Source of the DNA: Candidatus Eiseniibacteriota bacterium
GTDB lineage: Bacteria; Eisenbacteria; RBG-16-71-46; CAIMUX01; VGJL01
Direction: 5' to 3'
Assembly: GCA_041946735.1 (NCBI GenBank)
Contig: JBHGAY010000017.1
Coordinates: 56,009 to 120,008, forward strand
DNA length: 64,000 nucleotides
Shown: positions 5,740 through 63,222 of the stretch, piece by piece
How the letters are laid out: each line of letters starts with the position of its first letter
How positions within the stretch are numbered: the stretch's first letter is position 1
The notes under the pieces: generated by a model
The model's database searches: none
What the model was told of the DNA's origin: nothing
The model's input: only the letters and a program-made list of their open reading frames with translations
Translations under genes and position numbers: made by a program

Positions 5740-5904
5740 CAGAGCTTCCTCCGGTTGCGGCACCTGGTTGTGCGGGCGGAATGGGCCGACCGCGGACGTC
5801 ACAAAGAACCGGACTCTATTCTACCGGATTGTCAGCGCCGGTGATAGAAGGTGACGGGCCGGCGCGTTCCCGGAGGTTGGGGATGCGAGGCAGGGGAGCG
5901 GAGG

Positions 5905-40151: not shown

Positions 40152-41705
40152 TCAACGGATCCGCTGAGCGCGCACCGACGCGATCTCGCCGTCCGCCTCC
40201 ACCTGTAGGAAGTAGACCCCCGCCGGCACCGTCCGGCCGCCATCATCGCGCCCGTCCCACTCGAGGACATGCTCGCCCGCCGCCATCGACGCGTTCGCTC
40301 CGCTCAGAAGCGTGCGGACGAGGCGTCCCGCCGGGTCGACGACGGAGGCGCGCACCGCCGCCGGGCGCGGCAGGCCGAGCCGGAAGGCGGTGGCGGCGCG
40401 GAACGGGTTCTTCCCGGCGAGCGAGACGGAGAGGCGCGGGGAGGAGGCGGCATGGTCGAAGGCCCCGGCCGTGTCGGCGACGATCTTGTACACCTCGCCG
40501 TCCGTTCCGCTACCCCGGTCGACAATGTACATTTCGCCCGCGGAGTCCTCGGCGAAAGCGGAGATGCTGCCGATCGACTGCCCGCCGCCCGGCGCCAGCT
40601 CCGCCGTTCGCTCCGTCACCTCGGTCACGGTTTGTCCATCGTAGCGGAGCGTCCAGATCCGGTTGCTGCAGTAGTCGGCGAAGAAGTAGGCGCCGCGCAG
40701 CGAAGGGATGGCGACTCCGCGATAGACGACGCCCCCCGTGATCGAGCACCCGTCGGAGTGGCTGTACTCGTAGATCGGCCAGGTGATGCCGGTCGTGTCG
40801 CAGTCCTGGGAGGGCTCGTAGCAGTGGTGGCCCTCCGTGTTGTCCCAGCCATAGTTGACACCCCCGGTAGATCCGGCCGGCTCGAAGTCGATCTCCTCCC
40901 ATCTGTTCTGGCCGACGTCGGCGATCCAGAGATCGCCCGTCTCGCGGTCGAACGACCAGCGATACGGATTGCGCACGCCCAGATCCCAGATCTCGTCGAG
41001 AGGGAGTCCCGGCCCGGCGAACGGATTGTCCGGCGGGATCGAGTACGGAGGCTCACCGTCGACGTCGATGCGAAGGATCTTGCCGAGCAGGGAGCCGGGA
41101 TCCTGCGCGTTCTCCTCCGGGTCGCCGGCGCCCCCACCGTCCCCCATGCCGATGTACAGCATGCCGTCGGGACCGAAGAGGAGGGTGCCGCCGTTGTGGT
41201 TCGCATACGGCTGATCGATGGTCAGGATCGGCGTCCAGCTCAGCGGATCGGCGGCGTTCGGATCGGAGGAGACCGTGTAGCGCGCGATCACGGTGTCGCC
41301 GGAGAGGTTGATGTAGTCGACGAAGAACCAGCCGTTCGTCGCGTAGTCCGGATGGAAGGCAAGGCCGAGGAGGCCTCGCTCGTCGTTGCCCGAGATGTCC
41401 GGCACGAGGTCGTCGATATCGAGGAACGGGCTCGGGAGCAGCTGGCCGTTCTCGAGGATCCGGATGACTCCGCGCTGCTCGACGATGAAGAGCCGGCCGT
41501 CCCCCGGAGGAGAGATCGCGAAGACCGGGCGCGCGAGCCCCGAGGCGACCCGCACGGTTGTCGCCGCGCGGGCGGGGGCGGCGAAGCCGGCTGCGAGGGA
41601 GAGGGCGAGGGCGACGGCGACGGCGAGGACGAGGGTGGCGGCGGCGCTGACGCCGCCGAAGAAGCGGAGTGCCAGGCTGAGGGCGCGACTGTGGGTACGG
41701 TGCAT
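40152..41705 (-). CDS. PQQ-dependent sugar dehydrogenase (glucose/sorbosone family) with FlgD-like tail
   Basis: ERGLLGLAFHP, NHNGG, GKILRID, GVRNPYR and DVGQ motifs. Confidence 0.9.
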   Translation of the reverse strand: MHRTHSRALSLALRFFGGVSAAATLVLAVAVALALSLAAGFAAPARAATTVRVASGLARPVFAISPPGDGRLFIVEQRGVIRILENGQLLPSPFLDIDDLVPDISGNDERGLLGLAFHPDYATNGWFFVDYINLSGDTVIARYTVSSDPNAADPLSWTPILTIDQPYANHNGGTLLFGPDGMLYIGMGDGGGAGDPEENAQDPGSLLGKILRIDVDGEPPYSIPPDNPFAGPGLPLDEIWDLGVRNPYRWSFDRETGDLWIADVGQNRWEEIDFEPAGSTGGVNYGWDNTEGHHCYEPSQDCDTTGITWPIYEYSHSDGCSITGGVVYRGVAIPSLRGAYFFADYCSNRIWTLRYDGQTVTEVTERTAELAPGGGQSIGSISAFAEDSAGEMYIVDRGSGTDGEVYKIVADTAGAFDHAASSPRLSVSLAGKNPFRAATAFRLGLPRPAAVRASVVDPAGRLVRTLLSGANASMAAGEHVLEWDGRDDGGRTVPAGVYFLQVEADGEIASVRAQRIR

Positions 41706-45020: not shown

Positions 45021-46412
45021 ATGGCCGCCAGCGTGGAGAAGTCGTACGACCTGATCGTGATCGGGAGCGGACCGGGCGGGTACTCCGCCGCGATCCGCGC
45101 CTCGCAGCTCGGCATGAAGACCGCGATCGTCGAGGAGGCCGAGCTGGGCGGGATCTGCCTCAACTGGGGCTGCATCCCAACGAAGGCGCTTCTCCGTTCG
45201 GCGGAGCTGTACCAGGTCCTCCGGCACGCGAAGGATTATGGGCTGTCGGCGCCCGAGGCCGGCTTCGACTGGGGCCGCGTCATCCAGCGCAGTCGCGACG
45301 TCGCGTCTCGCATGAACAAGGGCGTCTCCTTCCTCATGAAGAAGAACGGCATCGACGTCCACCCGGTGCGCGGGAAGCTCGGCGACGCGCAAGGCACCGT
45401 CCTTGCGGGAGAGCAGACGCTGCGCGGGAAGCAGGTGATGGTGGCGACCGGCGGCCGCGCGCGCGGGATCCCCGGCGTGACGATCGACGGTGAGCGGATC
45501 CTGACGTACCGGCAGGCGATGACCCTCTCCGCACGTCCGGAGAGGATCGTCATCATCGGGGCCGGAGCGATCGGGGTCGAGTTCGCCTACTTCTTCAATT
45601 CGTTCGGGACGCGCGTGACCTTGATCGAGATGCTGCCGCACCTCCTTCCGATCGAGGACGAGGAGATCTCGAAAGAGCTCGAGCGTTCCTTCTCGAAGCA
45701 GGGGATCGCGATTCGCACCGCCACCCGCGTGCAGTCGCTCGCTCGGGACGGCGATATTGTTCGCGCGGCGGTCGCCGGCCCGAAGGGGGAGGAGACGATC
45801 GAGGCGGACGTGGCTCTCGTCGCGATCGGCGTCCAGGGAAACGTCGAGGAGATCGGGCTCGAGAAGGCGGGGGTACACGCGGAGCGGGGGAGGATTCTCG
45901 TCGACGCGCATCTGCGGACCAACGTGCCGGGGATCGTCGCGATCGGGGACGTGATCGGACCTCCGCTGCTCGCGCACGTCGCCGTCGCCGAGGGGATCCA
46001 CGCGGTGGAGACGATCGCCGGGATCGAGCGCAAGCCGATCGACTACCGCAAGGTGCCCGGTTGCACCTACTGCCAGCCGCAGGTCGCGAGCATCGGCCTG
46101 ACCGAGAAGGCGGCGCAGGAGAGGGGCTACGAATTCAAGGTGGGGCGATTCCCCGTCCGGGCGAGCGGCAAGGCGGTCGCGCTCGGCGAGACGGAGGGGA
46201 TCGGCAAGGTCCTCGTCGGGCCGTACGGGGAACTGCTCGGGGTCCACATGATCGGGCCCGAGGCGACGGAAGTGATCGCCGAGGCTTCGCTGGCGATGGC
46301 GAGCGAAGCGACGGCAGGAACGATCCTCGAAACGATCCACGCGCACCCCACGATGGCAGAGACGATTCTCGAGGCGACGGCGAATGCCCTTGGCGAAGCG
46401 ATCAACATCTGA
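45021..46412 (+). CDS. lpdA: Dihydrolipoyl dehydrogenase (E3)
   Basis: GSGPGG, GGICLNWGCIPTK, GAGAIG and HAHPT motifs. Confidence 0.95.
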   Translation: MAASVEKSYDLIVIGSGPGGYSAAIRASQLGMKTAIVEEAELGGICLNWGCIPTKALLRSAELYQVLRHAKDYGLSAPEAGFDWGRVIQRSRDVASRMNKGVSFLMKKNGIDVHPVRGKLGDAQGTVLAGEQTLRGKQVMVATGGRARGIPGVTIDGERILTYRQAMTLSARPERIVIIGAGAIGVEFAYFFNSFGTRVTLIEMLPHLLPIEDEEISKELERSFSKQGIAIRTATRVQSLARDGDIVRAAVAGPKGEETIEADVALVAIGVQGNVEEIGLEKAGVHAERGRILVDAHLRTNVPGIVAIGDVIGPPLLAHVAVAEGIHAVETIAGIERKPIDYRKVPGCTYCQPQVASIGLTEKAAQERGYEFKVGRFPVRASGKAVALGETEGIGKVLVGPYGELLGVHMIGPEATEVIAEASLAMASEATAGTILETIHAHPTMAETILEATANALGEAINI

Positions 46413-47100
46413 CGCGTCCCGGAAGCTCGCTCCGGTCCGCTGGAGCTGGCTTCCCGGCCATCCATCCTATGAGCCGGTGTGGCGACTGCAGGAGGATCTG
46501 CAGCGCCGGCGGATCGATGGCGAGATCGACGATACGATCCTGCTTCTCGAGCACGCGCCGGTCGTGACGGTCGGGCGCAATGGAAGCGAGGGAAACCTGC
46601 TTGCCCCGGAGCCGCTCCTGCGGGCCCGGGGGATCGAGCTGGTGCACACCGACCGGGGAGGAGACGTCACCTACCACGGTCCAGGCCAGCTCGTCGGCTA
46701 CCTGATCGTCGACCTGCGGCGGCTCCATCACGACGTCCATCGCTTCCTGCGCGAGATCGAGGAAGGGCTGATCCGCACGCTGGCGCGTTGGGGAATCGAG
46801 TCGGGACGGATCGCGGGGAAGACGGGGGTCTGGATCGGCGAGGAGAAGATCGCGTCGATCGGACTGCGCGCGAGCCATTGGGTGACGATGCACGGCTTCG
46901 CGCTGAACGTCGCGCGCGACGTCTCGGGGTTCGACGTGATCGTGCCATGCGGTATCCCCGGCTGCAGGATGACGTCGATGGAGCGGATCCTCGACCGTCC
47001 CGTCGACATCGACGAGGTCGGCGAGGCGGCGATCGAGGAGCTGGCGAAGCTCTGGGGGCGGCGGCCGGTCCGAGAGGAGAGGGATCGATGGCCCAGCTGA
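46384..47100 (+). CDS. lipB: Octanoyltransferase
   Basis: LLEHAPV, RGGDVTYHGPGQ, KIASIG, HGFALN and PCG motifs. Start position uncertain. Confidence 0.92.
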   Translation: MPLAKRSTSDASRKLAPVRWSWLPGHPSYEPVWRLQEDLQRRRIDGEIDDTILLLEHAPVVTVGRNGSEGNLLAPEPLLRARGIELVHTDRGGDVTYHGPGQLVGYLIVDLRRLHHDVHRFLREIEEGLIRTLARWGIESGRIAGKTGVWIGEEKIASIGLRASHWVTMHGFALNVARDVSGFDVIVPCGIPGCRMTSMERILDRPVDIDEVGEAAIEELAKLWGRRPVREERDRWPS

Positions 47101-49193
47101 GGAGCGGCAAGTCCGGCAAGGGCGCGCCGAAGCGGACGAAGAAGGTCGAGCGCGAAGCCGCTGCCGTCGAGCCGTCCGGATCGGGCAACGGGATCGCGCC
47201 GGGAATCGACCTCCTGTCGGCGTACCGGACGATGCTCCTGACCCGCCGGCTCGACGAGAAGATGCTGATCCTCCTGAAGCAGGGGAAGAGCTTCTTCCAC
47301 ATCGGGGCCAGCGGTCACGAAGCGTCGCAAATCGCGGCTGCGGCGCACATGGTCCCCGAGAAGGACTGGTCCTACCCGTACTATCGCGACCTCGCCTTCT
47401 GCCTGCAGATCGGGATGACCGCCGAGGAGGTGCTGCTCTCCTTCCTGGCGCGCGAGGAGGATCCCAACAGCGGAGGCCGGCAGATGCCGGCGCACTACGG
47501 CCACCGCCGCCTGCGGATCGTCTCGCAGTCGAGTCCGACCGGCTCGCAGTTCCTGCAAGCGGTCGGCTGCGCGCTCGGGTCGAAGCTCGAAGGGACCGAC
47601 GAGGTCGTCTACGTCTCGGCGGGCGAGGGGACGACGAGCCAGGGGGATTTCCACGAGGCGCTGAACTGGGCGAGCCGCGAGAAGCTTCCGGTCCTCTTCC
47701 ACGTCGAGGACAACAAGTACGCGATCAGCGTCCACATCTCGCAGCAGACGACCGCAACGATCTACGACCTCTGTGGCGGATACGTGGGCCTGCGCCGCTA
47801 CGCGGTCGACGGAACCGACCTGCTCGCCTGCGACCGGGTGATGCAGGAGGCGATCGCCGGATGCCGGGCGGGCGCGGGGCCTGCCTTGGTCGTCGCCGAC
47901 GTCGTCCGCCTGCTTCCCCACTCCTCGAGCGACAACCAGGCGAAGTACCGCTCGAAGGAGGAGCTGGAGGCGGACCGCTCCCGCGATCCGCTCCCGCGCC
48001 TCGAGTCGCTTCTGCTCGAGCGAGGCCTCGCGACGGCCGGCGATCTCGAGCGCCTCCGCGACGAGACGCGGCGGAAGGTCGACGAAGCGGCCGACTGGGC
48101 CGACTCGCGCCCGCATCCCGATCCCCGGACGGCCACGCTGCACGTCTGGTCGCATCCGGTCTACGAGCCTCCCGAAGGGGCGCGCGAGACGCCGCACGGC
48201 ACCGGGGACACGATCGTCCTCGTCGATGCGATCAACCACGCCCTCGTCGAGGAGATGGCGCGCAACCCGAAGATCGTCGTTTACGGGGAGGACGTCGAGG
48301 ACTACAAGGGGGGCGTCTTCACGGCGACCACCGGCCTCTCGGTCCGCTACGGGCGCGACCGGGTCTTCAACTCTCCGCTCGCTGAGTCGAGCATCGTCGG
48401 CACGGCGGTCGGGCTCGCGTCTCGCGGCTTCCGCCCGGTCGTCGAGATCCAGTTCGGCGACTACATCTGGCCGGCGATGAACCAGCTTCGCAACGAGCTG
48501 GCGACCATGCGCTACCGCTCCGCCGGCCACTGGAGCGCCCCGGTCGTCGTCCGCGTCCCGGTCGGCGGCTACATCCACGGCGCCTTGTACCATTCGCAGA
48601 ACATAGAGGCGACGTTCGCGCATTTCCCGGGCCTGTACGTTACCTATCCCTCGAACGCGTCCGACGCGAAGGGGCTGCTGAAGAGCGCGATTCGCGGCGA
48701 CGATCCGGTCCTCTTCCTGGAACACAAGGGACTGTACCGGCAGGTCTACGCGGCGGCGCCCGAGCCGGACGCCGAGTTCCTCCTCCCGTTCGGGAAGGCG
48801 CGCGTGGCGCGGCAGGGGAGCGACATTACGATCGTCACCTACGGCGCGCTCGTGAAGCGCTCGCTGGACGCCGCCTCCAAGATGGAGGCGCAGGGGGTCT
48901 CGGTCGAGGTGATCGACCTGCGGACACTGATCCCCTGGGATCGCGAAACGGTCCTCGCCAGCGTCCGCAAGACCGGGCGCCTGCTGGTCGCCCATGAGGA
49001 CATCGTGACCGGTGGGTTCGGAGCGGAAGTGGCGGCGGCGGTGGCGCGCGAGGGCTTCGAGTTCCTCGATGCTCCGATCCTCCGCGTGGGCGCGGCCGAT
49101 TCCCCGATCCCGTTCAACTGGTTCCTCGAAGCGGAGGTGCTCCCGCAGGAATCGCACCTCCTCGCCGCGCTTCAGGATCTGGCGGAGTACTGA
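47088..49193 (+). CDS. Fused E1 alpha/beta 2-oxoacid dehydrogenase (probably branched-chain type)
   Basis: GEG...N TPP motif, HSSSD, GEDV...GGVF, EIQFGDY and HSQ motifs. Confidence 0.9.
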   Translation: MAQLRSGKSGKGAPKRTKKVEREAAAVEPSGSGNGIAPGIDLLSAYRTMLLTRRLDEKMLILLKQGKSFFHIGASGHEASQIAAAAHMVPEKDWSYPYYRDLAFCLQIGMTAEEVLLSFLAREEDPNSGGRQMPAHYGHRRLRIVSQSSPTGSQFLQAVGCALGSKLEGTDEVVYVSAGEGTTSQGDFHEALNWASREKLPVLFHVEDNKYAISVHISQQTTATIYDLCGGYVGLRRYAVDGTDLLACDRVMQEAIAGCRAGAGPALVVADVVRLLPHSSSDNQAKYRSKEELEADRSRDPLPRLESLLLERGLATAGDLERLRDETRRKVDEAADWADSRPHPDPRTATLHVWSHPVYEPPEGARETPHGTGDTIVLVDAINHALVEEMARNPKIVVYGEDVEDYKGGVFTATTGLSVRYGRDRVFNSPLAESSIVGTAVGLASRGFRPVVEIQFGDYIWPAMNQLRNELATMRYRSAGHWSAPVVVRVPVGGYIHGALYHSQNIEATFAHFPGLYVTYPSNASDAKGLLKSAIRGDDPVLFLEHKGLYRQVYAAAPEPDAEFLLPFGKARVARQGSDITIVTYGALVKRSLDAASKMEAQGVSVEVIDLRTLIPWDRETVLASVRKTGRLLVAHEDIVTGGFGAEVAAAVAREGFEFLDAPILRVGAADSPIPFNWFLEAEVLPQESHLLAALQDLAEY

Positions 49194-50212
49194 TGGCGGC
49201 CCCGGCGTCCTCTTCCTCTTCGGGCCGGACGCTCGCCACCTACGACCGCCCCTTCCTCGAACGGATCGCCGCGCTCCTGGCGTTGAACCGCGCTTTCGAT
49301 GACCGCGTCACCGCGCTCTACCGCCGCGGGCTCATCCCGGGCGGGGCCTACGGCAGCCGGGGCCAGGAGGCGACGAGCGTCGGCAGCACGCTCGCTCTCG
49401 AGCCGGGCGACGTGATCGGCCCGATGATCCGCAACTCCGGCGCGATCCTCGCGCGCGGCGTCCCACCCGGCCCCTTCCTCGCGAACTTCCTCGGCCGCGT
49501 CGGCGGCATGACCCGGGGCCGCGACGGCAACACGCATTTCGCCGACCTCTCCCGCGGGATCCTGGGGCCGATCAGCATGCTCGGCGCGCTGGTGTCCGCC
49601 TGCGCGGGGGTCGCCCTCGCGTTCCGCATGCGCGGGGAGAAGCGGGTCGCGCTGACCTGGATCGGAGACGGCGGATCGAGCACCGGGGACTTCCACGAAG
49701 GGCTGAACTTCGCCGCCGTGCTCGATCTCCCGCTCGTCGTGATCGTGGAGAACAACGGCTACGCCTACTCGACCCCGGTCGAGCGCCAGTGCCGCGTCGC
49801 CTCGTTCGCCGACAAGGCGGCCGGCTACGGGATCCCGGGCACGAGCGTCGACGGCAACGATCCGCTCGCAGTCTACGAGGCGACGCGGGAGGCGGTCGCG
49901 CGAGCCCGCGAGGGGGGCGGACCGAGCTTGATCGAGGCGGTCACCTTCCGCATGCGAGGCCACGCGGAGCACGACGACGCCTGGTACGTCCCACGTGAGT
50001 TGCGCGAGGCATGGGAGGCTCGCGATCCGCTCCGCCTGTTCCGGGCCCGCCTGATCGAGGAGGGGATCCTGGACGAAGCGCAGTACGCGGCGATCGAGGC
50101 GCAGGCGGAGGAGCAGATGCGGGAGGCGGAGGCCTTCGCGCTCGCTTCTCCCGAGCCGGATCCGGCCGATGCGCTACGCGGGCTCTACGCGGGCGAGGAG
50201 GATCGCCCGTGA
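49193..50212 (+). CDS. 2-oxoacid dehydrogenase E1 alpha subunit
   Basis: GQEA, GDGGSSTGDFHEGLNFA...ENN and RMRGHAEHD motifs. Confidence 0.9.
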   Translation: MAAPASSSSSGRTLATYDRPFLERIAALLALNRAFDDRVTALYRRGLIPGGAYGSRGQEATSVGSTLALEPGDVIGPMIRNSGAILARGVPPGPFLANFLGRVGGMTRGRDGNTHFADLSRGILGPISMLGALVSACAGVALAFRMRGEKRVALTWIGDGGSSTGDFHEGLNFAAVLDLPLVVIVENNGYAYSTPVERQCRVASFADKAAGYGIPGTSVDGNDPLAVYEATREAVARAREGGGPSLIEAVTFRMRGHAEHDDAWYVPRELREAWEARDPLRLFRARLIEEGILDEAQYAAIEAQAEEQMREAEAFALASPEPDPADALRGLYAGEEDRP

Positions 50213-51192
50213 GCGCCGGCGGCGGGACGATCACCTACCTCGAGGCGATCACCGATGGCCTGCGTGAGGAGATGCGCCTCGATTCTTCCGTCTACCTCCT
50301 CGGCGAGGACATCGGCGCCTACGGCGGAGCGTTCAAGGTGACGAAGGGTCTGATCGAGGAGTTCGGACCGTGGCGGGTGATCGACACGATCGTCGCGGAG
50401 TCCGCGATCCTGGGAGCGGCGATTGGATCGGCGATCGCCGGCATGCGCCCCGTCGCCGAGATGCAGTTCGCCGACTTCGTCGCTTGCGGCTTCAACCAGC
50501 TTGTGAATCTGGCCGCAAAAGCGCACTACAGGTGGGGGCAGGCCGTGCCGCTCGTCGTCCGCCTCCCGTCCGGCGGCTATGTGCATGGCGGGCCGTTTCA
50601 CTCGCAGAATCCGGAGGCATGGTTCTGTTCCGTTCCCGGATTGAAGGTCGTCGCGCCTTCGATGCCGGCCGACGCATATGGACTGATCCGCTCGTCGATT
50701 CGAGATGACAATCCTGTAGTCTTTCTCGAACACAAATTCCTCTATCGGAGGATCAAATCCGCAATCGTGAACGAACCGAAAGTTCCTTTGGGCCGGTCGA
50801 TCGTGTACCGTCCGGGCCGTGACGCGGGAATCGTGACCTACGGTTCGGGAGTGCACCTCGCGCTCGCGGCAGCCGAGGCCCTGGCCCAAGAAGGAATCGA
50901 AGTGGAAGTCCACGATCTCCGTACGCTCGTCCCTTACGATCGCGAGTCTCTCAGCGAGACGGTGCGGCGGACGCATCGCGTCCTCGTCTTGCACGAGGCC
51001 TCGATGACGGGGGGATTCGGAGCCGAGATCGCCGCCTGGATCGGCGAGGCGCTCTTCGAGCACCTCGATGCGCCGGTGCGCAGGCTCGCCGGAGAGGACG
51101 TGCCGGTTCCTTATCATCCGGTCCTCGAGGACCGGGTTCTCCCGAATACCGAGAAGGTCACACGAGCGCTCCGCGAGCTGATCGCGTATTGA
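50209..51192 (+). CDS. 2-oxoacid dehydrogenase E1 beta subunit
   Basis: GEDIG.YGG.FKVT, EMQFADF and GPFHSQ motifs. Confidence 0.92.
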   Translation: MSAGGGTITYLEAITDGLREEMRLDSSVYLLGEDIGAYGGAFKVTKGLIEEFGPWRVIDTIVAESAILGAAIGSAIAGMRPVAEMQFADFVACGFNQLVNLAAKAHYRWGQAVPLVVRLPSGGYVHGGPFHSQNPEAWFCSVPGLKVVAPSMPADAYGLIRSSIRDDNPVVFLEHKFLYRRIKSAIVNEPKVPLGRSIVYRPGRDAGIVTYGSGVHLALAAAEALAQEGIEVEVHDLRTLVPYDRESLSETVRRTHRVLVLHEASMTGGFGAEIAAWIGEALFEHLDAPVRRLAGEDVPVPYHPVLEDRVLPNTEKVTRALRELIAY

Positions 51193-51218
51193 GCGCCGGC
51201 GGAGGAGGAAAGAAGCCG

Positions 51219-52784
51219 ATGAAAGTCGACATGGTGATGCCGCAGATGGGGGAGTCGATCGCCGAAGGAACGATCCTGCGCTGGCTGAAGAAGGAAGGGG
51301 ATGTCGTCGCCAAGGATGAGAACATCCTCGAGATCTCCACCGACAAGGTCGACTCCGAGATTCCCGCTCCCGCCGCCGGCAAGATCGTCGCGCTGCTGGC
51401 TGCCGAAGGGGAGACCGTCCCCGTCGGCAAGGTGATCGCCCACATCGAGACCGACGTCTCGGCCGCCCCCGAAACCCCGCAGCAGAAGGCGCCGGAAGCG
51501 GAGCAGAAGGCGCCGGCAAACCCCGAGGAAGCGCAGAAGAAGCACGCGGCTCCGGCGGGACGTCTCGTGCAGGAGCCCGGCGCGGCTGCCGAAGCGAAGC
51601 CGCCGGCGGAGTCCCGCCCGACGCCGACTCCCGCGCCTGCGCCCGCCCAACCGCAGCCGCAGCCTGTGGCGGCGTCGAGCGGGCCTCGTGCGGAGTCGCC
51701 GGACGGCAACGGCGGCGCAGGTCGCTTCTACTCTCCGCTCGTGCGCTCCATCGCCCAGTCCGAAGGGATCTCGCTCGAGGAGCTTTCGCGGATCGAAGGC
51801 TCGGGTCGCGGGGGACGGGTGACGAAGGAGGACTTGCTCGCCTACGTCGAGCGTCGCGGCGGATCGCGCGCCCAGCCGGCTCCGGCTCCCTCGCAGGCTT
51901 CTGCCGCCGGCGCTCCGTCGGCCGCTTCCGCGCCCGGGGCTGCCGCTCCGCAGGGCGCTCCCGTCACGCCGCAGCCCTCTCCCGTCGAGAGACCGTCGCC
52001 GGAGGCGCCGCAACCGCGCACCGCTCCGGCCCCGGCCGGGCGAGGCGTCACGGTTCCGTCGATCGGCCAGCCGGTCGAGAGCCGGGAGAGCCCCGACGGG
52101 CGGATCGACGTCGTCCCGATGGACCATGTGCGCCAGCGGATCGCGGAGCACATGGTCCGCTCCAAGGCGACCTCCCCGCATGTCGCCTCCGTGACCGAGG
52201 CGGACATGACGCGGATCGTGCAATATCGTGAGTCGCACAAAGAAGCGTTCGAGCAGCAAGAAGGCTTCAAGCTCACGTATACACCGTTCTTCGTGCAAGC
52301 GATCGTCCGGGCGCTGAAGGATTTCCCGGTCGTCAACGCCTCCGTCGAAGGGACAAACATTCTGCTCAAGCGCTTCATCCATGTCGGCGTCGCGGTGTCG
52401 GTCGACTACGGCTTGATCGTTCCGGTGATCAAGCATGCCGACACGCTCTCCTTCCTCGGCATCGCCCGGGCCGTCAACGATCTCGCGGCGCGAGCCCGCT
52501 CGAAGGCGCTCAAGCCGGACGAGGTGGCGGGGGGCACGTTCTCCATCACGAACATGGGAACCGTCGGCACGCTCTTCGGCGTTCCGATCATCGCGCAGCC
52601 CCAGGTCGGGATCCTCGGGATCGGGGCGATTCAGAAGCGCCCCGTCGTGAGGGACGACGCGATCGCGATCCGCTCGATGATGTACATGTGCCTCTCCTAC
52701 GACCATCGGGTCATCGATGGCGCCACGGGCGGCTCGTTCGTGGAGCGGGTGCGGCATTATCTGGAGACGATGGAGCTGGCGTGA
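51219..52784 (+). CDS. Dihydrolipoamide acyltransferase (E2)
   Basis: Lipoyl domain STDKVD, E3-binding GSGRGGRVTKED, Pro/Ala linkers and catalytic YDHRVIDG. Confidence 0.92.
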   Translation: MKVDMVMPQMGESIAEGTILRWLKKEGDVVAKDENILEISTDKVDSEIPAPAAGKIVALLAAEGETVPVGKVIAHIETDVSAAPETPQQKAPEAEQKAPANPEEAQKKHAAPAGRLVQEPGAAAEAKPPAESRPTPTPAPAPAQPQPQPVAASSGPRAESPDGNGGAGRFYSPLVRSIAQSEGISLEELSRIEGSGRGGRVTKEDLLAYVERRGGSRAQPAPAPSQASAAGAPSAASAPGAAAPQGAPVTPQPSPVERPSPEAPQPRTAPAPAGRGVTVPSIGQPVESRESPDGRIDVVPMDHVRQRIAEHMVRSKATSPHVASVTEADMTRIVQYRESHKEAFEQQEGFKLTYTPFFVQAIVRALKDFPVVNASVEGTNILLKRFIHVGVAVSVDYGLIVPVIKHADTLSFLGIARAVNDLAARARSKALKPDEVAGGTFSITNMGTVGTLFGVPIIAQPQVGILGIGAIQKRPVVRDDAIAIRSMMYMCLSYDHRVIDGATGGSFVERVRHYLETMELA

Positions 52785-53716
52785 TGGCGGCGGCGACGAC
52801 GACAGCGGGACGGCGTCCCGAGTGGTTGAAGGTCCGGCTCCCCCAGCACGGAACGTTCCAGACGACGCGGAAGATCGTGGAAGGGCAGAAGCTCCACACG
52901 GTCTGCGAAAGCGCTCGGTGTCCCAACATCGGGGAGTGCTGGGGAGCGGGCACGGCGACGTTCATGATTCTCGGCAACATCTGCACACGCGGCTGCCGGT
53001 TCTGCGCGGTCATCACCGGGCGGCCGACCGAGCTCGATCGGGAGGAGCCGGAACGGGTGGCGCAGGCGATCGCCTCGATGCCGGTGCGCCACGCCGTGAT
53101 CACCTCCGTCGACCGGGACGAGCTGCCCGACGGCGGCGCCTCGGTCTTCGCCGCGACGATCCGGGCGATCCGCCGCCGAACGCCGCAGGTGACCGTCGAG
53201 GTGCTGATCCCCGATTTCCTCGGCGACCGGGCGGCGCTCGACGTCGTCCTCGACGAGCGCCCCGAAGTCCTCAATCACAACGTCGAGACGGTGCCCCGTC
53301 TCTATCGAAAGGTCCGGCCCCAGGCCCGCTACGAGCGATCCCTTTGGGTGCTCCAGCGGGCGCGGAGCCGCGGCCTCGTGACGAAGAGCAGCCTGATGGT
53401 CGGCCTGGGCGAGGAGGAGGCGGAGATCGTGCAGGTTCTCCGCGACCTTCGCTCGGTCGACTGCGGTATCGCGACGATCGGCCAATACCTCCAGCCGACC
53501 GCGCAGCACCTGCCGGTGCGGCGATGGGTCACGCTGGAGGAGTTCGACCGCTATCGGCAGGCCGGGCAAGAGCTTGGCTTCGAGCACATCGAGAGCGGCC
53601 CATTGGTCCGGTCGTCCTATCACGCGGAGCGGGCGGTCTCGGGCATGGGAAGGCCCAAAACCGCCCGATCCTCGGAAGGCCTGGCAGGGATCCCCGGCAG
53701 TGGAATCCCCGTCTAG
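52784..53716 (+). CDS. lipA: Lipoyl synthase
   Basis: CESARCPNIGEC, CTRGCRFC and VRSSY motifs. Confidence 0.95.
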   Translation: MAAATTTAGRRPEWLKVRLPQHGTFQTTRKIVEGQKLHTVCESARCPNIGECWGAGTATFMILGNICTRGCRFCAVITGRPTELDREEPERVAQAIASMPVRHAVITSVDRDELPDGGASVFAATIRAIRRRTPQVTVEVLIPDFLGDRAALDVVLDERPEVLNHNVETVPRLYRKVRPQARYERSLWVLQRARSRGLVTKSSLMVGLGEEEAEIVQVLRDLRSVDCGIATIGQYLQPTAQHLPVRRWVTLEEFDRYRQAGQELGFEHIESGPLVRSSYHAERAVSGMGRPKTARSSEGLAGIPGSGIPV

Positions 53717-57715: not shown

Positions 57716-57969
57716 GGCATCACTCCTGTGGTCGGGTCGCATGCGAGGATGTGGAGGTCCGGTCGGATGCTCGAGCTGCGCTCTCCTTCTGCCTCACTGC
57801 TCCAGGCACGACCCGCATTCGCACGTCGGAGAACTCGACCGGGTGGGCCCAGCGCCACGTCAATCCCGGTCGGATGGACGCCACCCATTCTACTCCTCCG
57901 CCCGAAACCCGTCGACGAGTGCAGGCCGGCTCCTTCCCGCCCCGCCGACCGTGACCGCAACACGGGTGA

Positions 57970-57998
57970 TTGACGCCGCCGGGGGATCGGAATACCAT
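57970..57998 (+). promoter_or_regulatory. Sigma70-type promoter for the tRNA/aaRS cluster
   Basis: TTGACG-17 nt-TACCAT. Confidence 0.6.
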
Positions 57999-58120
57999 TC
58001 TGTTGCTCGGTCTTCGATGACTTGCGAGGGCAAAGCGACAGCATGCGGCGGACGCACCGGGCTTTCCGCTGTTCGTTTCGTGCGCCTTCCCTGGGCCATC
58101 GCCCGAGTTCGAGTTTCGAT

Positions 58121-58370
58121 GCGCCCGTAGTTCAATGGTCAAGTCGTGGCGGTTTCGTCGCAAATGGTTCCGTTTGGGGCTCCCGTCCGCGTTGCGCACG
58201 GCGGAAGACGCCGGCGCTGAATAGCATCCTAGGTCGCTATTCAAACAAGAGCTGTGTGCCGCAAGGACGGATGGCTCCTGGGAAGTACGGCGCCGAGCGA
58301 TAAGCCTCCAGGCAAAGAACAGTGGACCTATAATCCACGAATGCGGGTTCGATTCCCGTCGGGCGTACCA
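58121..58370 (+). tRNA. tRNA with anticodon UAU (nominally Ile/AUA), interrupted in the D-loop by ~175 nt
   Basis: Acceptor GCGCCCG/CGGGCGT, discriminator A and encoded CCA; U8A9; D-stem GTTC (58130)/GAAC (58317); anticodon arm GTGGA-CCTATAA-TCCAC; 4-nt variable loop; T-arm GCGGG-TTCGATT-CCCGT; A15-U48 compatible. Confidence 0.85.
58140..58315 (+). ncRNA. Structured intervening sequence in the tRNA D-loop (possible intron, class uncertain)
   Basis: Hairpins 58194-58217 and 58218-58243; long-range pairings CCGTCC/GGACGG and GCTGTG/TACGGC. Boundaries are ambiguous by a few nt. Confidence 0.6.
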
Positions 58371-58414
58371 GGTTCCGCGGCCACCTCAAGAGTGCGGAGG
58401 CGCGCGACGACGTC

Positions 58415-59482
58415 ATGGACGACCCGGCCGCCATCGAGACATCGCAGGACGCTTATGTCGACGTGTCCGAGAGCTACGGACGAATCGCCTGCCTCCAGCG
58501 CCTCGTCCCGCTGATCCTCAGAACGAACGAGCACACCTACCTCTCCACCCCGGAACGCGACGATCCGCTGGGCGCCACGTGGCTGGAACTGGGATTGCGC
58601 GGTCTCGAGAATCTGCACGAGCGCTTCCGCCCGAAGGTCCGAAGAGCCGCCGTCATCGGCACCGGCAGTGGCCTCGACGCGATCGGGATCGCGGAGATCT
58701 TCTCGCCCGAATCGATCGTCGCCTCGGACATCCATCCCCGGGCCCTGGAGGCGGCACGCTGGAACGTCGCGGGCTACCTGCGTCCCGAGGTCCGGTGCGA
58801 GCTGCTCCGAAGTGATCTCTTCCGCGGGTACTCTTCAGACACCACCTTCGATCTCGTCTTCGAGAACCTTCCGAACGTTCCGGAGGACGAGGCGACGGGC
58901 GCGAGCCTCCTCGAAGGGATTCGCAGCTCGAGCTGCTACAACGCGTCGGCCTACGTGGCGGATCCGCTCGTCGATCGTCATCTCCTGACGCTGCACTACA
59001 ACTGCCTTCTCGAGGCGCGCGACCATCTGACTCCCGATGGCTGGGTCGTCTCGCTGATCGGCGGCCGGATCCCGTGGGCGGTCGTCGTGGAGACATTCCG
59101 CAAGGCGGGCTTCGGCGCGCGCGTCCTCGAGTTCGGGATCAAGACGCAGACCGAGCCCGGCATCGTCCTGGAAGGCTACGCGCGCGCGGAGGAGGATGGC
59201 TCTCCGCCGTTCCTGTACTACTACCCGCCCGAGTCCTGCCTGAATGCTCTCCCACGCGGGCGGGATGGACGCGGCGATGGCGCCGACCCAGCCGGCACGG
59301 TCGAGGAGGGGAACGCCGCCCTCGATGCGTTTCGCGTCAGCGCCCGCGAAGCGCTCGCGCTCCACCGCAGAGGAAAGAAGGTCTGCCACACCGTCTACGT
59401 CGTGGGGGGGCACGCCCTGGGGGGCCGCGTCGCTGGAGGGACGCCGGCAGCACGCGCGACACAGGCGCCGCCTGCGCAATGA
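58415..59482 (+). CDS. SAM methyltransferase resembling methionine S-methyltransferase (MmtN/MMT-like)
   Basis: Motif I VIGTGSG, SDIHP, SDL, ENLPNV, IGGRIP and C-terminal VSAREAL...CHTVYV. Family assignment is from recalled motif order. Confidence 0.65.
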   Translation: MDDPAAIETSQDAYVDVSESYGRIACLQRLVPLILRTNEHTYLSTPERDDPLGATWLELGLRGLENLHERFRPKVRRAAVIGTGSGLDAIGIAEIFSPESIVASDIHPRALEAARWNVAGYLRPEVRCELLRSDLFRGYSSDTTFDLVFENLPNVPEDEATGASLLEGIRSSSCYNASAYVADPLVDRHLLTLHYNCLLEARDHLTPDGWVVSLIGGRIPWAVVVETFRKAGFGARVLEFGIKTQTEPGIVLEGYARAEEDGSPPFLYYYPPESCLNALPRGRDGRGDGADPAGTVEEGNAALDAFRVSAREALALHRRGKKVCHTVYVVGGHALGGRVAGGTPAARATQAPPAQ

Positions 59483-60207
59483 CCGCGCCCGAACCGTTCA
59501 CCGATCCCGAAGCGATCGACCGGATGGAGGCGGAGCACAGGCCGCTCTGGTCGGCGTTCGTCCGCAGCTTCTCCCCCCTACTCTTTCCCGGCGCCCGTGT
59601 GCTGGATTTCGGCTGCAGCGGAGGGGGACTGCTCCGCCTGCTGTTCGAACGGCAGACGGAAGGGGCCATCCCGGAGATCGCGCTCGCCGCCGGCATCGAC
59701 GTCGACGAGCCGGCGATGAGAACCGTCCTTGCCCGCGCTGCCGGTCGTCCTCCACGGGATCTCCCGATCGTCTTCACAACGGGGCGCCTCGCCGCCTTCC
59801 CGGAGCAGTTCGACCTGGTCGTCTCGCACGAGGTGGTCTATCTCCTTCCGGATCTCCGCGAGACATTTGCGGAGATCCGAGCGGCGCTCCGCGATCAAGG
59901 GCACTTCTGCTTCACGACCGGGTGCCACACGGACAATCCGCTCTTCGCGCGATGGAGGCGCTCGCTCGAGGCCGAAGGCGTCGCCGTCCATGCGCGTGCC
60001 GCGGACGCGTACGAGCGGGCGTTGCGCGATGCCGGATTCATCGAGATCCGAGACGACCGGCTGCGCCTGCGCGAAGAGGAGTATGCCGCCTGGGCCGCAG
60101 CCCGTGGCACGGCGCAACCGAATCCCGCCTGGTTCGCGAGCTCGGCCGAGGAGCGCGACTATTACGTCCGAACCGGCAAGCTGCTTCTCACCGCGCAGAG
60201 GGGGTGA
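59479..60207 (+). CDS. Class I SAM-dependent methyltransferase
   Basis: VLDFGCSGG, GIDV and FDLVVSHEVVYLL motifs; ATGA-coupled to the upstream gene. Confidence 0.85.
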   Translation: MTAPEPFTDPEAIDRMEAEHRPLWSAFVRSFSPLLFPGARVLDFGCSGGGLLRLLFERQTEGAIPEIALAAGIDVDEPAMRTVLARAAGRPPRDLPIVFTTGRLAAFPEQFDLVVSHEVVYLLPDLRETFAEIRAALRDQGHFCFTTGCHTDNPLFARWRRSLEAEGVAVHARAADAYERALRDAGFIEIRDDRLRLREEEYAAWAAARGTAQPNPAWFASSAEERDYYVRTGKLLLTAQRG

Positions 60208-62393
60208 TGAGGATGGGCGGGTACGATCCGGCGGCGATCGAGCCCAAGTGGCAGGAGCGCTGGCGGGAGAGACGCACCTTCGAGAGCCGGCGCGACCCGG
60301 CGCGCCCGAAATACTACGTGTACAATCCAGCGCCTTACGTCACCGGCGCGCTGCACATGGGACATGTCCGCAACTACGCCTGCGGGGACTTCGTGGCGAA
60401 GGTCCACCGTCTGAAGGGGGACGCGGTCCTCTACACGATCGGCTTCGACGCGTTCGGCCTGCCGACGGAGATGGCGGCGATCCGCAACTCCGTCGCGCCG
60501 GAGCAGTGGACCGCGGACTGCCTCGAGCAAATGCGGCGGCAGCTCTCCGCTCTCGGATGCGGCTTCGACTGGTCGCGCTCCTTCCTGACCTGCGAGCCGA
60601 AGTACTACCGGTGGACGCAATGGATCTTCCTGCAGCTCCATGAGAGAGGGCTGATCTACAGCACGGTCGGGACGACCCTATGGTGTCCGGAGTGCGACAC
60701 CTCGCTCGCGCGCGCGCAGGCGGAGGAGGGGCGCTGCTGGATCTGCGGCTCGACGGTCGAGCGCCGCCGGGTGCGCGAGTGGATGCTGCGCGTCTCCCCT
60801 TACCTGGGGCGCCTGCTGCGCGGCCTCGAGAAGACCACCGACCGCAGCGGTCTCGCAGAGCAGGGACAGGGCAACCTGATCGGCCGCCAGGACGGTTTCG
60901 CCGTGCAGCTCCGCGTCGAGGGGGTGAGGGAGCCGCTCACTGCGTTTCTCCCCGACGGCGCCTCGTGGGCGGCGCCGTGCGTGATCGCCGTCGACGCGCG
61001 GGACGAGGAAACGCTGGCCGCTCTCGCCGCGGGCGGGGGCGGGGGTGAGGAGGGAGCGCCGATCGCCCCGGCGCTCGCCGATGCGGTGCTCGCCGCCCTG
61101 CCGGGCGCCCGGCTGACCGGCTGGATCGCGGTCGAGGAGCGGACGGGGAGGCGTCTGCCCGTCGTCGTCGCCCCGCTCTCCGATCCGGCCTTTCTCGATC
61201 AGCCGCTCGTCGTGCCCCTCGCGCAGGCGGCCGGCGAGGGCGCCGCGCCACGGTCGCCAGCGCCGGGCTTCCCGCCCATGACCGTCTACCGGCAGAAGGA
61301 CTTCTCGATCTCGCGCCAGCGGCTCTGGGGCACGCCGATCCCGATCGTCCTTTGCGAGACGTGCGGCGAGGTGCCGGTGCCGGTCGAGGAGCTTCCGGTC
61401 GTGGCGCCCGGGCTCACGATCGATCCGGGCACCGGCCGCCTGCGCCGCGAAGGGGATTCCTGGGACCTCCGGCGATGCCCGCGCTGCGGAGCGCCGGCGC
61501 GGCTCGACCCGCAGGTGATGGACTGCCACATGGACTCCATCTGGCATCCGTTCCGCCCATGCGCGCTCGAATCGACCGAGTTCCTCTTCGATCCCGACGA
61601 GGTCCTCTACTGGATGCCGGCGGACATCATCCAGTTCGGCCGCGACGTGATTCCCTTCATGCTCGATCTGCGCTTCTTCTCCTACTTCCTGCACGATCTC
61701 GGGCTCGTTCCGTTCGAGGAGTTCTGCACGGAGGTGCTGGCGCACGGGCTGATCCTTCACGAGGGACGGAAGATGAGCAAGCACCTCGGGAACGCCGTCA
61801 CGCCCGAGGAGGCGATCGAGCGGTTCGGCGCCGACGCGCTGCGCTTCTACGCCCTCGCGCACGAGGAGCCGAAGAGCGACTGCCGCTGGTCGGAGGAGGG
61901 GATCGATCGCTACCGCGCGCTCCTCGCAACCTTCCATGGCCTCGTCGCATCGGCTCCGGCGGTGGAACGACCGGCCCCGCCACCCGCGACGAGGGACCGG
62001 GAGCCGGGGGCGCGCCGCAGCAAATACGCGAACGTATTCCTGAAGAAAGTCGCCCGAGAGATCGAGGGGCTCGCTTCGTACGTGGAGGAGACGCGGTACG
62101 ACCGCTACGCGAGCGGCGTCGCCCGGATGATCTCCTCGATGGAGTTCTTCGCGACGAACCATCTCGCCCGCGAGCGCGATCCTCACGTTTCGCGCCTGTG
62201 GCGATCGATCCTCGAAGACGCCGTGGCGTATCTCGCTCCCATCGCCCCGCACCTGGCCGAGGAGTGCTGGGAGATGCTGGGGAAGGAGGACTCGATCTTC
62301 TCCGCCGCGCGCCCGCCGGCGGTCACCGCACAGGCGATCCGGGACTTGCTCGAGGACTCGCGCCACATCACGACCCAGGGAAGGGACGCATGA
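60207..62393 (+). CDS. Divergent leucyl-tRNA synthetase paralog (class Ia)
   Basis: IEPKWQERW, LHMGH, FDAFGLP, YYRWTQWIF, SRQRLWGTPIP, KMSK and PIAPHLAEE motifs; ~728 aa. Confidence 0.9.
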   Translation: MRMGGYDPAAIEPKWQERWRERRTFESRRDPARPKYYVYNPAPYVTGALHMGHVRNYACGDFVAKVHRLKGDAVLYTIGFDAFGLPTEMAAIRNSVAPEQWTADCLEQMRRQLSALGCGFDWSRSFLTCEPKYYRWTQWIFLQLHERGLIYSTVGTTLWCPECDTSLARAQAEEGRCWICGSTVERRRVREWMLRVSPYLGRLLRGLEKTTDRSGLAEQGQGNLIGRQDGFAVQLRVEGVREPLTAFLPDGASWAAPCVIAVDARDEETLAALAAGGGGGEEGAPIAPALADAVLAALPGARLTGWIAVEERTGRRLPVVVAPLSDPAFLDQPLVVPLAQAAGEGAAPRSPAPGFPPMTVYRQKDFSISRQRLWGTPIPIVLCETCGEVPVPVEELPVVAPGLTIDPGTGRLRREGDSWDLRRCPRCGAPARLDPQVMDCHMDSIWHPFRPCALESTEFLFDPDEVLYWMPADIIQFGRDVIPFMLDLRFFSYFLHDLGLVPFEEFCTEVLAHGLILHEGRKMSKHLGNAVTPEEAIERFGADALRFYALAHEEPKSDCRWSEEGIDRYRALLATFHGLVASAPAVERPAPPPATRDREPGARRSKYANVFLKKVAREIEGLASYVEETRYDRYASGVARMISSMEFFATNHLARERDPHVSRLWRSILEDAVAYLAPIAPHLAEECWEMLGKEDSIFSAARPPAVTAQAIRDLLEDSRHITTQGRDA

Positions 62394-62409: not shown

Positions 62410-63222
62410 ATGACGCAGACCGTATTCGATCGATTTCGATCCGCCTTGGCGTCCGGAATCGAACGGCTGGAACGCGCCCGTCGGAGCGGCGAGCCGCGCG
62501 CGCTCTGGCGGGAGGCTCTCGCGCTCGAGCACGTGATCCAGTGCGACCTCCTCTCCCTTCGAGAGGAAGAGGAGGTGATCGGCACGCTCGAGCCCGAGCG
62601 AGTCGCCCTCTGTCGCGACATCTTCTGCGTCCTCGAGACGCAGATCGAGAGCAGCTTCGCCGCGATGGCGCTGTCCGGCGGCGACGCGGTCCTCGCGCGG
62701 ATCGACGGGATCACCGAGAACTACCTGGTCCGCTACGAGGAGCTGGCGCGAAAGGAGATCGCGCTCGCCGGGATGACGGGGCGCGATCGCGTTCTGTTCA
62801 TCGGGAGCGGCCCGCTGCCGATCACCGCGATCGAGTATCACCGTCAGACGGGGTGCGAGGTGGACTGCGTGGACTTCTCGCCGCAGGCGATCGACACCTC
62901 GCACGAAGTGCTAGGGCGCCTGCGGCTCGATTCGGCCATCCACCCGCAACTTCTCCGCGGCGAGAACGTCCCCGCCGGCGGCTGGACGGTCGTCCTGGTC
63001 GGTGTGCTCGCCCGTCCGAAGAGGGAGATCTTCGAGAATCTCGCGAGGGTGTGCCCGGACGGCTGCCGCGTTCTCGCGCGGACCACGTTCGGCCTCCGCG
63101 GCCTGATCTACGAACCGATGGGGTGGGATCCCGCGAGCCTCGGCGGCTTCCGGATGACCGGCACGAACGAGGCGCGAGCGGACCAGATCATCTCGGCGAT
63201 CGGCTACGTGCTGGGGCGTTGA
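62410..63222 (+). CDS. Nicotianamine synthase-like aminocarboxypropyl transferase
   Basis: Y..RYEELARKE, VLFIGSGPLPITAI and RTTFGLRGLIYEP motifs. Confidence 0.8.
   Translation: MTQTVFDRFRSALASGIERLERARRSGEPRALWREALALEHVIQCDLLSLREEEEVIGTLEPERVALCRDIFCVLETQIESSFAAMALSGGDAVLARIDGITENYLVRYEELARKEIALAGMTGRDRVLFIGSGPLPITAIEYHRQTGCEVDCVDFSPQAIDTSHEVLGRLRLDSAIHPQLLRGENVPAGGWTVVLVGVLARPKREIFENLARVCPDGCRVLARTTFGLRGLIYEPMGWDPASLGGFRMTGTNEARADQIISAIGYVLGR

Follow-up and report, generated by a model that had tools for sequence, protein, structure and literature searches.

Which amino acid does a leucyl-tRNA synthetase (LeuRS) homologue handle once its amino acid pocket has been rewritten, and does it still load that amino acid onto an RNA? 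The question is raised by a stretch of 64,000 nucleotides (hereafter, the window) from Candidatus Eiseniibacteriota bacterium (GenBank assembly GCA_041946735.1, contig JBHGAY010000017.1, positions 56,009 to 120,008 of the forward strand), in which a LeuRS-like class Ia synthetase homologue is the third gene of an operon that starts just downstream of a tRNA-like gene and that also encodes three putative S-adenosylmethionine (SAM)-dependent transferases. We put at roughly even odds (about 0.5) the reading that this protein is a non-editing synthetase dedicated to the tRNA-like RNA, which it would load with an amino acid other than leucine, made or modified by the SAM enzymes.

Pocket, editing domain and ancestry of the LeuRS-like protein

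The best family match of the LeuRS-like protein is the bacterial LeuRS equivalog TIGR00396, at 421.4 bits and thus under the curated cut-off of 548.4, and the closest solved structure is Thermus thermophilus LeuRS (1h3n, E 3.5e-102). Pfam recognises the class I catalytic and anticodon-binding (Anticodon_1) domains, with no match to the LeuRS editing domain PF13603. A first-pass annotation, made from the DNA alone, had described the class I signatures and zinc-knuckle cysteines as intact, and all of them are found in the translation and the alignments: HMGH occupies residues 50–53 and KMSK(H) residues 522–526, while the knuckle cysteines (C160, C163, C177 and C180; C383, C386, C424 and C427) vary little or not at all among the 43 LeuRS and LeuRS-like sequences aligned. 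The three replaced pocket motifs that it listed are likewise present. Residues 41–47 read PAPYVTG where canonical LeuRS has MFPYPSG, residues 437–447 read VMDCHMDSIWH (canonical TMDTFxDSSWY), and residues 477–487 read FGRDVIPFMLD (canonical GGxEHAxLHLLY). These altered motifs recur in all 15 members of the clade described below; the 19 canonical rows of the alignment all have the standard forms or close variants.

The loss of the CP1 editing motifs, also proposed at first pass, was borne out by a regular-expression scan, which found neither a TTRPDT-type motif nor an AHDxxD motif in P0002–P0014, and CP1 is shortened in addition. It measures 138 aa in the window protein and 107–154 aa in 13 clade sequences, against 193–207 aa in 23 canonical LeuRS, leaving the window protein about 60 residues short, with the C-terminal third of CP1 deleted. 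As had been noticed, the protein also stops soon after PHLAEE.W: only 41 residues follow the W of PHLAEECW, compared with 84–93 in canonical LeuRS, so a C-terminal domain of ~50–60 aa is absent. A missing leucine-specific domain, at which the 1h3n alignment had hinted, was rejected as a distinguishing feature; the anchors taken to flank that insertion (residues 505 and 522 of P0002) are 17 residues apart in 43/43 sequences, canonical ones included. Since the altered motifs and the pocket, editing and C-terminal changes are kept across the clade, they are selected and not products of chance or decay.

At the level of single residues, the comparison with 1h3n (T. thermophilus numbering) gives the substitutions M40 to P, F41 to A, F501 to H, Y507 to H, H545 to F and Y548 to D, and the position equivalent to H541 also differs; F501, Y507, H541 and H545 we take to be pocket residues, a role for which no literature source was found. 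Y43 and D80 are retained as Y44 and D81, and the GGVEH loop has become FGRD, whose Asp (D480) is placed by MAFFT on the conserved catalytic Glu and on the Asp of valyl-tRNA synthetase (ValRS). HMGH, KMSK, Y44, D81, D480 and both zinc sites are invariant within the clade. According to an excerpt of work on Neisseria gonorrhoeae LeuRS (PMC9424281), Y43 does not vary among LeuRS and stacks against the substrate, the alpha-amine is held by D80 and the F41 carbonyl, H547 of the GIEHA loop binds the substrate carboxylate, and D80 with E532 (E. coli numbering) aids transfer to tRNA; F41, Y43, D80 and the GIEHA loop are thereby confirmed as belonging to the substrate site. As the equivalents of Y43, D80 and the Glu are retained, the LeuRS-like protein has kept the substrate backbone anchors and the acidic transfer pair. 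The alignment indicates that the side-chain cavity and the priming-loop His are altered while the backbone anchors are kept, and the retained acidic pair is what would be expected if the enzyme can still pass its substrate to the 3' end of an RNA.

Structure prediction and comparison with solved LeuRS, proposed at first pass as a check, gave a LeuRS fold. The AlphaFold2 model, built from the 43-sequence alignment, has a mean predicted local distance difference test (pLDDT) score of 90.8 and a predicted template modelling score of 0.90; the reduced CP1 (approximately residues 227–340) is folded in it at pLDDT ~78–95, and Foldseek ranks solved bacterial LeuRS first, with TM-scores of 0.74–0.80 normalised on the query. 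Motifs, Y44, D81, zinc sites and the confident predicted model together make the enzyme look catalytically competent. Proofreading is very unlikely, with the editing motifs absent and part of CP1 deleted, and specificity for leucine is unlikely given pocket substitutions conserved over the clade; the rebuilt pocket suggests another substrate. On all three points the result agrees with what had been inferred at first pass. The accompanying idea that new acidic residues could suit a cationic substrate is weak, for the Asp of GRD sits at a conserved catalytic acid position and is therefore not new, and the Asp of FMLD is confined to the 5 sequences of subclade A1, with T in its place in the remaining 10 members of the clade.

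The clade itself is tight. A search of 5.8 billion clustered proteins returned P0003–P0014 at full length (45–61% identity, 644–1001 bits) and the fragment P0015, the first matches beyond the clade being canonical LeuRS at 450 bits; a profile search of 1.84 billion representatives (50% identity clusters) recovered from the clade P0012, P0003 and the fragments P0123 and P0152 only. Subclade A1 (CHMDS and GRDVIPFMLD) holds five sequences, the window's included, and subclade A2 (CHFDA and GRDTIPFLLT) holds ten, among them those of G004, a related genome that also carries the operon and its RNA, and of L109, a 146-kb metagenome contig. In the maximum likelihood phylogeny (IQ-TREE, LG+G4, 42 rows, ValRS root, a badly trimmed isoleucyl-tRNA synthetase (IleRS) row omitted), likewise among the checks first suggested, the clade is monophyletic (Shimodaira–Hasegawa-like approximate likelihood ratio test, SH-aLRT, 100) and falls outside 19/19 sampled canonical LeuRS, those of its own phylum included (SH-aLRT 93). 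Its neighbours in the tree, at SH-aLRT 95, are two groups (B and C) of short LeuRS-like proteins, a placement in which long-branch attraction is possible.

Groups B and C (for example WP_162827018.1 of Pseudolabrys taiwanensis, named 'class I tRNA ligase family protein') have in common with the clade KMSKH, the loss of the C-terminal domain and of the editing motifs, and non-canonical pocket motifs, but these motifs are different ones (GGPFPNG, SAPFTSG and others) and a partial PF13603 match is kept. Further proteins of ~700–790 aa share the group B/C traits, a regular expression finding KMSKH in 21 of 147 newly listed representatives; names across this wider family are generic, either the one just quoted or 'leucyl-tRNA synthetase'. 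When metagenome contigs of the JGI were scanned with a clade-specific sub-alignment, two true orthologues were returned; the other 78 loci, L110–L187, encode group C paralogs, common among the loci found, with 57–70% identity to P0105, LDCHFDALW, KMSKH and no C-terminal domain. A scan of genome contigs with the full clade alignment was dominated by canonical LeuRS and found no orthologue. Literature searches for LeuRS-like or LeuRS paralog proteins found no papers. One LeuRS-like relative, P0124 (909 aa, pocket motif CSPFASG, KMSKH), carries an N-terminal GNAT acetyltransferase fusion, a hint that the wider family perhaps acts on amino acids or aminoacyl groups outside translation.

A tRNA-like gene kept with the operon

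The first-pass annotation had matched the enzyme with a neighbouring short-variable-arm tRNA, and this RNA proved to be real. It lies within the 730-nt gap upstream of the operon, ending 44 nt before gene 1, and reads as a complete cloverleaf whose D-loop is expanded by a structured insert (Table 1); its 3' end comprises a T arm with UUCGAUU, the acceptor strand CGGGCGU, A73 and CCA. ARAGORN with its intron option calls the gene, modelling the insert in the anticodon loop, and in the minimum free energy fold all four arms are kept while the insert forms a long extra domain closed by the D-stem. The region upstream of the operon could be compared in three loci, namely the window, L107 (the locus in G004, element at 7003–7308) and L109 (element at 4573–4881). 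The arrangement is the same in all, with inserts of ~230 nt in the latter two, an RNA-to-gene 1 spacing of 44–62 nt, a shared UAU anticodon, A73 and CCA, and a variable loop of 4–5 nt; removal of the insert in silico yields a call of tRNA-Ile(UAU) in 3/3.

All 20 cloverleaf pairs form in each of the three sequences (60/60 cells), and four of them are compensatory between the window and L107/L109: 4-69 (C-G/U-A), 11-24 (U-A/C-G), 27-43 (G-C/C-G) and 28-42 (U-A/C-G). Slid controls gave 35–50% pairing and 0–1 pairs changed on both sides, and 10 of 500 shuffles reached the observed values. With three sequences the covariation is statistically modest, yet it is consistent in each arm and suggests that selection keeps the RNA a tRNA. 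For the inserts of L107 and L109, a shared fold of several helices was obtained, with six compensatory pairs. Conservation of RNA and operon together in three loci appears to be the strongest support for a private tRNA.

What the insert is was approached through known elements. Rfam intron and ribozyme families gave no match, with thresholds of E ≤ 1 for the window and E ≤ 5 for L107 and L109, no riboswitch family matched L107 or L109, and the archaeal splicing endonuclease PF01974 was not found in the window's own genome (G000; 94.8% complete, 72 contigs) or in G004. A group I intron was rejected from a reading by eye, not computed, in which the boundary rules fit the window and fail in L107. 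Searches of the literature on bacterial tRNA D-loop introns returned archaeal and eukaryotic cases only. A recent duplicate of a host tRNA was also discarded, the insert-less form being at most 75% identical to any host tRNA. Contigs of three metagenome studies, on soil, on industrial waste and on landfill, contain identical DNA over 57900–58700; one of these studies is possibly the source of the window. The contigs hold no variant or insert-less form of that segment.

The operon downstream is compact. The start of gene 2 overlaps the stop of gene 1, and its own stop overlaps the start of the LeuRS-like gene, for which an alternative GTG start exists at 60204. Gene 1 finds only weak matches in the PDB, to EEF2KMT and PrmA, and clusters of hypothetical PrmA/MTS-like methyltransferases in the ESM Atlas; gene 2 matches LahSB, BioC and phosphoethanolamine N-methyltransferases best. 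Gene 4 exceeds the cut-off of the nicotianamine synthase (NAS) family PF03059 (53.1 bits against 27.1) and matches archaeal thermonicotianamine synthase (3fpe, E 2.5e-18) and CntL (E 3e-7). The order of the five parts, i.e., tRNA-like gene, 355-aa methyltransferase-like gene, ~250-aa methyltransferase gene, LeuRS-like gene and NAS-like gene, is the same in the window, L107 and L109, with orthologues of genes 1 and 2 in the same positions, genes overlapping or close together, and unrelated flanks. The NAS-like orthologue directly follows the LeuRS-like gene in L107, L109 and the fragment L108, which holds these last two genes. In the phylum, the same two of 206 genomes, G000 and G004, have the LeuRS-like gene, the NAS-like gene and the 3' half of the RNA; the pattern for the latter occurs a single time in either genome and is missing from the remaining 204. 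The best explanation for this distribution would be a self-contained, horizontally mobile module. As for its transcription, a scan with a promoter consensus gave two sites against 0.3 expected in shuffles, and TTGAC(A/G)-17-nAnAAT strings, spotted by eye and unscored, also lie upstream of the element in L107 and L109.

A gene of ~280 aa without Pfam match follows the module in three loci of subclade A2, namely L107 (L107:12164-13030), L109 (L109:9849-10685) and L108 (L108:1968-2810), the L107 and L109 copies being 44% identical. As a module part in G000 it was rejected: its relatives there are scattered, belong to a large repeated secreted-protein family, and do not lie beside the module.

Table 1 Features of the module in the window (positions in the window; all on the forward strand)
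Feature	Position	Strand	Description
Candidate sigma-70-like promoter	57970..57998	+	TTGACG, 17 nt, TACCAT; ~120 nt upstream of tRNA-like gene
tRNA-like gene	58121..58370	+	Read in DNA; full cloverleaf, UAU anticodon, A73, encoded CCA, D-loop insert
tRNA-like gene, 5' part	58121-58142	+	Acceptor GCGCCCG, UA, D-stem GUUC, D-loop AAUGGUCAA containing GG
Structured D-loop insert	~58143-58316	+	~174 nt; borders uncertain by a few nt
tRNA-like gene, 3' part	58317-58370	+	D-stem GAAC, anticodon arm GUGGA-CCUAUAA-UCCAC, 4-nt variable loop, T arm
Gene 1, SAM-dependent methyltransferase-like, PrmA/MTS type	58415..59482	+	355 aa; weak Pfam matches Methyltransf_25, _12
Gene 2, class I SAM methyltransferase	59479..60207	+	242 aa; Pfam Methyltransf_23, _12, _31, _11, _25
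Gene 3, LeuRS-like class Ia synthetase homologue	60207..62393	+	728 aa; rewired pocket, reduced CP1, C-terminal domain absent
Gene 4, nicotianamine-synthase-like	62446..63222	+	258 aa; putative SAM-dependent 3-amino-3-carboxypropyl transferase

A proposed private synthetase and its competitors

Given that the five parts are kept together and that the RNA shows tRNA-type covariation, the LeuRS-like protein is most simply taken as the cognate synthetase of this RNA. The enzyme would bind ATP through HMGH and KMSK, activate a non-leucine alpha-amino acid whose alpha-amine would be anchored by D81 and Y44 next to a rebuilt side-chain pocket, and esterify it to A76 of the module's own RNA without proofreading; the three SAM enzymes would build the amino acid, alter it after it has been loaded onto the RNA, or act on the RNA. 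In recognising its tRNA, bacterial LeuRS relies on A73 and on tertiary features of the D- and T-loops and ignores anticodon and variable arm; the elbow is contacted by its C-terminal domain. A kept A73 and an altered D-loop fit this mode of recognition, and the loss of the elbow-binding domain together with the shrunken CP1 may accompany the extra RNA domain at the elbow. The changes in enzyme and RNA look like co-evolution of a private pair. What is observed directly is the domain architecture, the conserved motif changes, the shared order and co-occurrence of the parts and the covariation; that the enzyme charges the RNA we infer, as we do the kind of amino acid and any use of the charged RNA. 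The compounds made by NAS-like enzymes have a gamma-amine and a free alpha-amino-acid head, and candidate substrates are the product of the NAS-like enzyme, a methylated derivative of it, or S-methylmethionine. Literature searches combining LeuRS paralogs with nicotianamine synthase found nothing relevant.

Several observations weigh against a dedicated synthetase–RNA pair. Two of the three loci compared, L107 and L109, belong to a single subclade, A2. No tRNA is called in the window by default ARAGORN or by Rfam at E ≤ 1, a miss that is explained by the structured ~175-nt insert in the D-loop; the Rfam tRNA model RF00005 (gathering score 29) covers 3' portions only in L107 (35 bits) and L109 (29.9 bits), and its gathering score is not reached by the window element, whose cloverleaf is complete only across the insert. 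Oddities of the anticodon loop are the C33 of the window and, in L107 and L109, mispaired C31 and U39. An unrecognised process might excise the insert, or the RNA might serve as a regulatory leader, and a look for sequencing runs with the locus listed no RNA run. Loss of the C-terminal domain abolishes charging by E. coli LeuRS, and with that domain missing here a complete loss of tRNA charging is possible. Finally, bacterial and archaeal LeuRS models detect no other LeuRS in G000.

The missing tRNA-binding domain is also the starting point for an alternative that we consider unlikely, in which the protein is a tRNA-independent ligase that passes an aminoacyl- or acyl-adenylate to a small-molecule amine or thiol in the manner of MshC. 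Its substrate could be the alpha-amino-acid head group installed by the NAS-like enzyme, the tRNA-like gene being linked to the operon in some other way. Such a ligase would be in keeping with the absent C-terminal domain and reduced CP1, with a genuine NAS-like enzyme in the operon whose products have a free alpha-amino-acid end, and with the GNAT fusion of P0124. Related groups, moreover, lack an adjacent tRNA-like gene: an upstream element was found by ARAGORN, intron option on, at 1 of the 53 group C loci with enough upstream sequence, and no homologue of the module's other genes lies in the flanks of any of the 78. Enzymes resembling aminoacyl-tRNA synthetases are known from natural-product pathways, as an excerpt of PMC12945691 describes. 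What a ligase leaves unexplained is a covarying tRNA-like gene with CCA and A73 at 44–62 nt upstream in 3/3 loci, and the LeuRS-like protein has kept both an anticodon-binding-type helical domain (Anticodon_1) and the acidic pair for tRNA transfer.

A bolder version of the private pair, which we regard as improbable, is a transferable code-expansion or RNA-carrier system in which a private tRNA(UAU) with an extra domain would be loaded by the LeuRS-derived synthetase with a non-standard amino acid that the NAS-like enzyme and both methyltransferases construct or complete. Either the charged RNA would deliver the amino acid at AUA, or it would act as a ribosome-independent carrier in the assembly of a nicotianamine-like compound. 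In G000, whose G+C content is 68%, AUA is the second-rarest sense codon (260 of 894,520 codons in 1,944 confident open reading frames, 0.29 per 1000), UUA occurring 91 times in the same set. TilS was found in G000, in G004 and in every one of the 13 genomes searched, which means that a normal AUA system exists. Codons were aligned at ≥55% identity with ~0.4 Mb from module-less relatives and ~0.44 Mb from G004. The tiny sample of AUA codons (n = 10) aligned to I (2), L (3), V (1), M (1), T (1), A (1) and a gap (1). AUC aligned to Ile at 62–65% (1792/2749 against module-less relatives, 691/1109 against G004), AUU to Ile at 60–65% and CUA to Leu at 69–75%, and the rare codons CUA (Leu) and AGA (Arg) aligned to their own residues at 63–75%. 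The low fraction of Ile at AUA may reflect rare codons at variable sites. The aligned residues are mostly aliphatic, and this small sample gave no evidence of recoding.

We give little credence to the proposal that the LeuRS-like enzyme truly charges leucine, be it as the sole LeuRS of the organism or as an inhibitor-resistant spare copy. It draws on the state of leuS in G000, which carries five tRNA-Leu genes and in which tblastn with the LeuRS of relatives found no leuS fragment either. In three relatives (G003, G004 and G005) leuS is flanked by a glycogen-phosphorylase-like gene on one side and by a block of conserved genes on the other; in G000 these flanks are on different contigs (G000:C18:1-9416 and G000:C26:46658-53821), and the phosphorylase-like gene is followed by genes for a 581-aa protein, a LysE protein, a response regulator and an extracytoplasmic function (ECF) sigma factor, other genes thus occupying the leuS site. 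A natural CP1-less LeuRS, that of Mycoplasma mobile (3ziu), is moreover among the structure matches. Yet the contig with the downstream syntenic block ends ~1 kb past it, so an assembly gap can hide leuS, and we cannot tell whether the gene was lost or left unassembled. A canonical LeuRS scores above the cut-off in 37 of 41 related genomes, including G004, where the LeuRS-like paralog is therefore an addition and not the housekeeping enzyme. Leucine charging is further disfavoured by the altered equivalents of M40, F41, F501, Y507, H541 and H545, whose pocket roles we partly presume, and by the branching of the clade outside every canonical LeuRS sampled.

That the tRNA-like element is a cis-acting leader or tRNA mimic controlling the operon, or an RNA substrate of the methyltransferases and the NAS-like enzyme only, with the LeuRS-like protein as an RNA-binding and not a charging subunit, is highly improbable: its position downstream of a promoter-like site and ahead of gene 1, which it shares a strand with, the resemblance of gene 1 to the PrmA/MTS type (a group that includes RNA methyltransferases) and a weak match of the L109 gene 2 orthologue to the CmoB-type PF08003 (E 5e-5) speak for it, but strictly conserved HMGH and KMSK with an intact adenylate site favour catalysis, and the encoded CCA, A73 and perfect 7-bp acceptor stem are features of a chargeable end.

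Surroundings and relation to known systems

Elsewhere in the window, very large secreted proteins with FlgD-Ig-like C-terminal domains are encoded at 898–5802, 29775–33425, 33680–35845, 36098–39667, 40152–41705 and 41919–44870, a cluster that includes C25 gingipain-type and C1 papain-type peptidases and a glucose/sorbosone dehydrogenase; the FlgD-Ig-like domain is repeated across the G000 genome. Upstream of LexA, an apparently complete and seemingly ordinary 2-oxoacid dehydrogenase region (45021–53716) comprises E3, a lipoyl ligase/transferase, a fused E1, separate E1 alpha and beta, E2, and a radical-SAM protein, possibly LipA.

Among known proteins, the nearest to the LeuRS-like enzyme are bacterial LeuRS (TIGR00396; 1h3n, E. 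coli 4aq7 and N. gonorrhoeae 7nu5), with which it shares the fold (TM-score 0.74–0.80), the Rossmann core with HMGH and KMSK, the CP1 insertion after ZN-1, the zinc knuckles, Y43/D80 and the helical anticodon-binding-type domain, while differing in score (421 against 548 bits), in its rewritten pocket, in a short CP1 without editing motifs and in having no C-terminal domain. Editing-less or second-copy variants of LeuRS have been described before, in Mycoplasma mobile (3ziu, solved with Leu-AMS) and as the agrocin-resistant AgnB2 LeuRS (5ah5, a LeuRS-tRNA-LeuAMS complex), both of them among the structure matches; by their entry titles these are leucine enzymes, and unlike them the protein studied here has a changed pocket and lacks the C-terminal domain. 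Synthetase-derived enzymes such as GluQRS/YadB and MshC were recruited for tRNA modification or small-molecule building, and to our knowledge neither they nor SbzA and AcmF are derived from LeuRS or possess a tRNA-like gene of their own. The latter two, IleRS-like and AlaRS-like, respectively, are synthetase-derived enzymes of small-molecule gene clusters, as reported in the excerpt of PMC12945691.

In layout the module resembles the pyrrolysine system. There, an unusual dedicated tRNA gene, its synthetase and biosynthetic enzymes share a compact transferable operon (pylT-pylS-pylBCD), and the module too pairs a dedicated tRNA-like gene with a synthetase and enzymes. It differs in resting on a class Ia LeuRS derivative where the pyrrolysine enzyme is class II, in a sense anticodon, UAU, in place of CUA, in a structured D-loop insert of 175–230 nt, and in its SAM-dependent transferases. 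As a synthetase paralog with a dedicated tRNA, the module is plausibly of a known kind; what would be novel is a private pair derived from LeuRS and a bacterial tRNA-like gene with a structured D-loop domain, neither of which turned up in our literature searches.

LeuRS is counted among the most evolutionarily stable synthetases in an excerpt of PMC5388404, and against that stability a derivative with a rebuilt pocket, no proofreading and no C-terminal domain is unusual. The analysis also reveals a wider family of LeuRS-like paralogs with diversified pockets. An operon that brings its own covarying tRNA-like RNA and three SAM transferases is laid out as one would expect for orthogonal charging. 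Provided that the RNA is charged, enzyme and RNA would constitute a new natural tRNA/synthetase pair, of interest for genetic-code engineering, and the RNA a new tRNA architecture with a structured domain in its D-loop, probably together with a new amino acid or nicotianamine-like metabolite. Should delivery at AUA prove true, this would be the third genetically encoded addition after selenocysteine and pyrrolysine, and the first at a sense codon.

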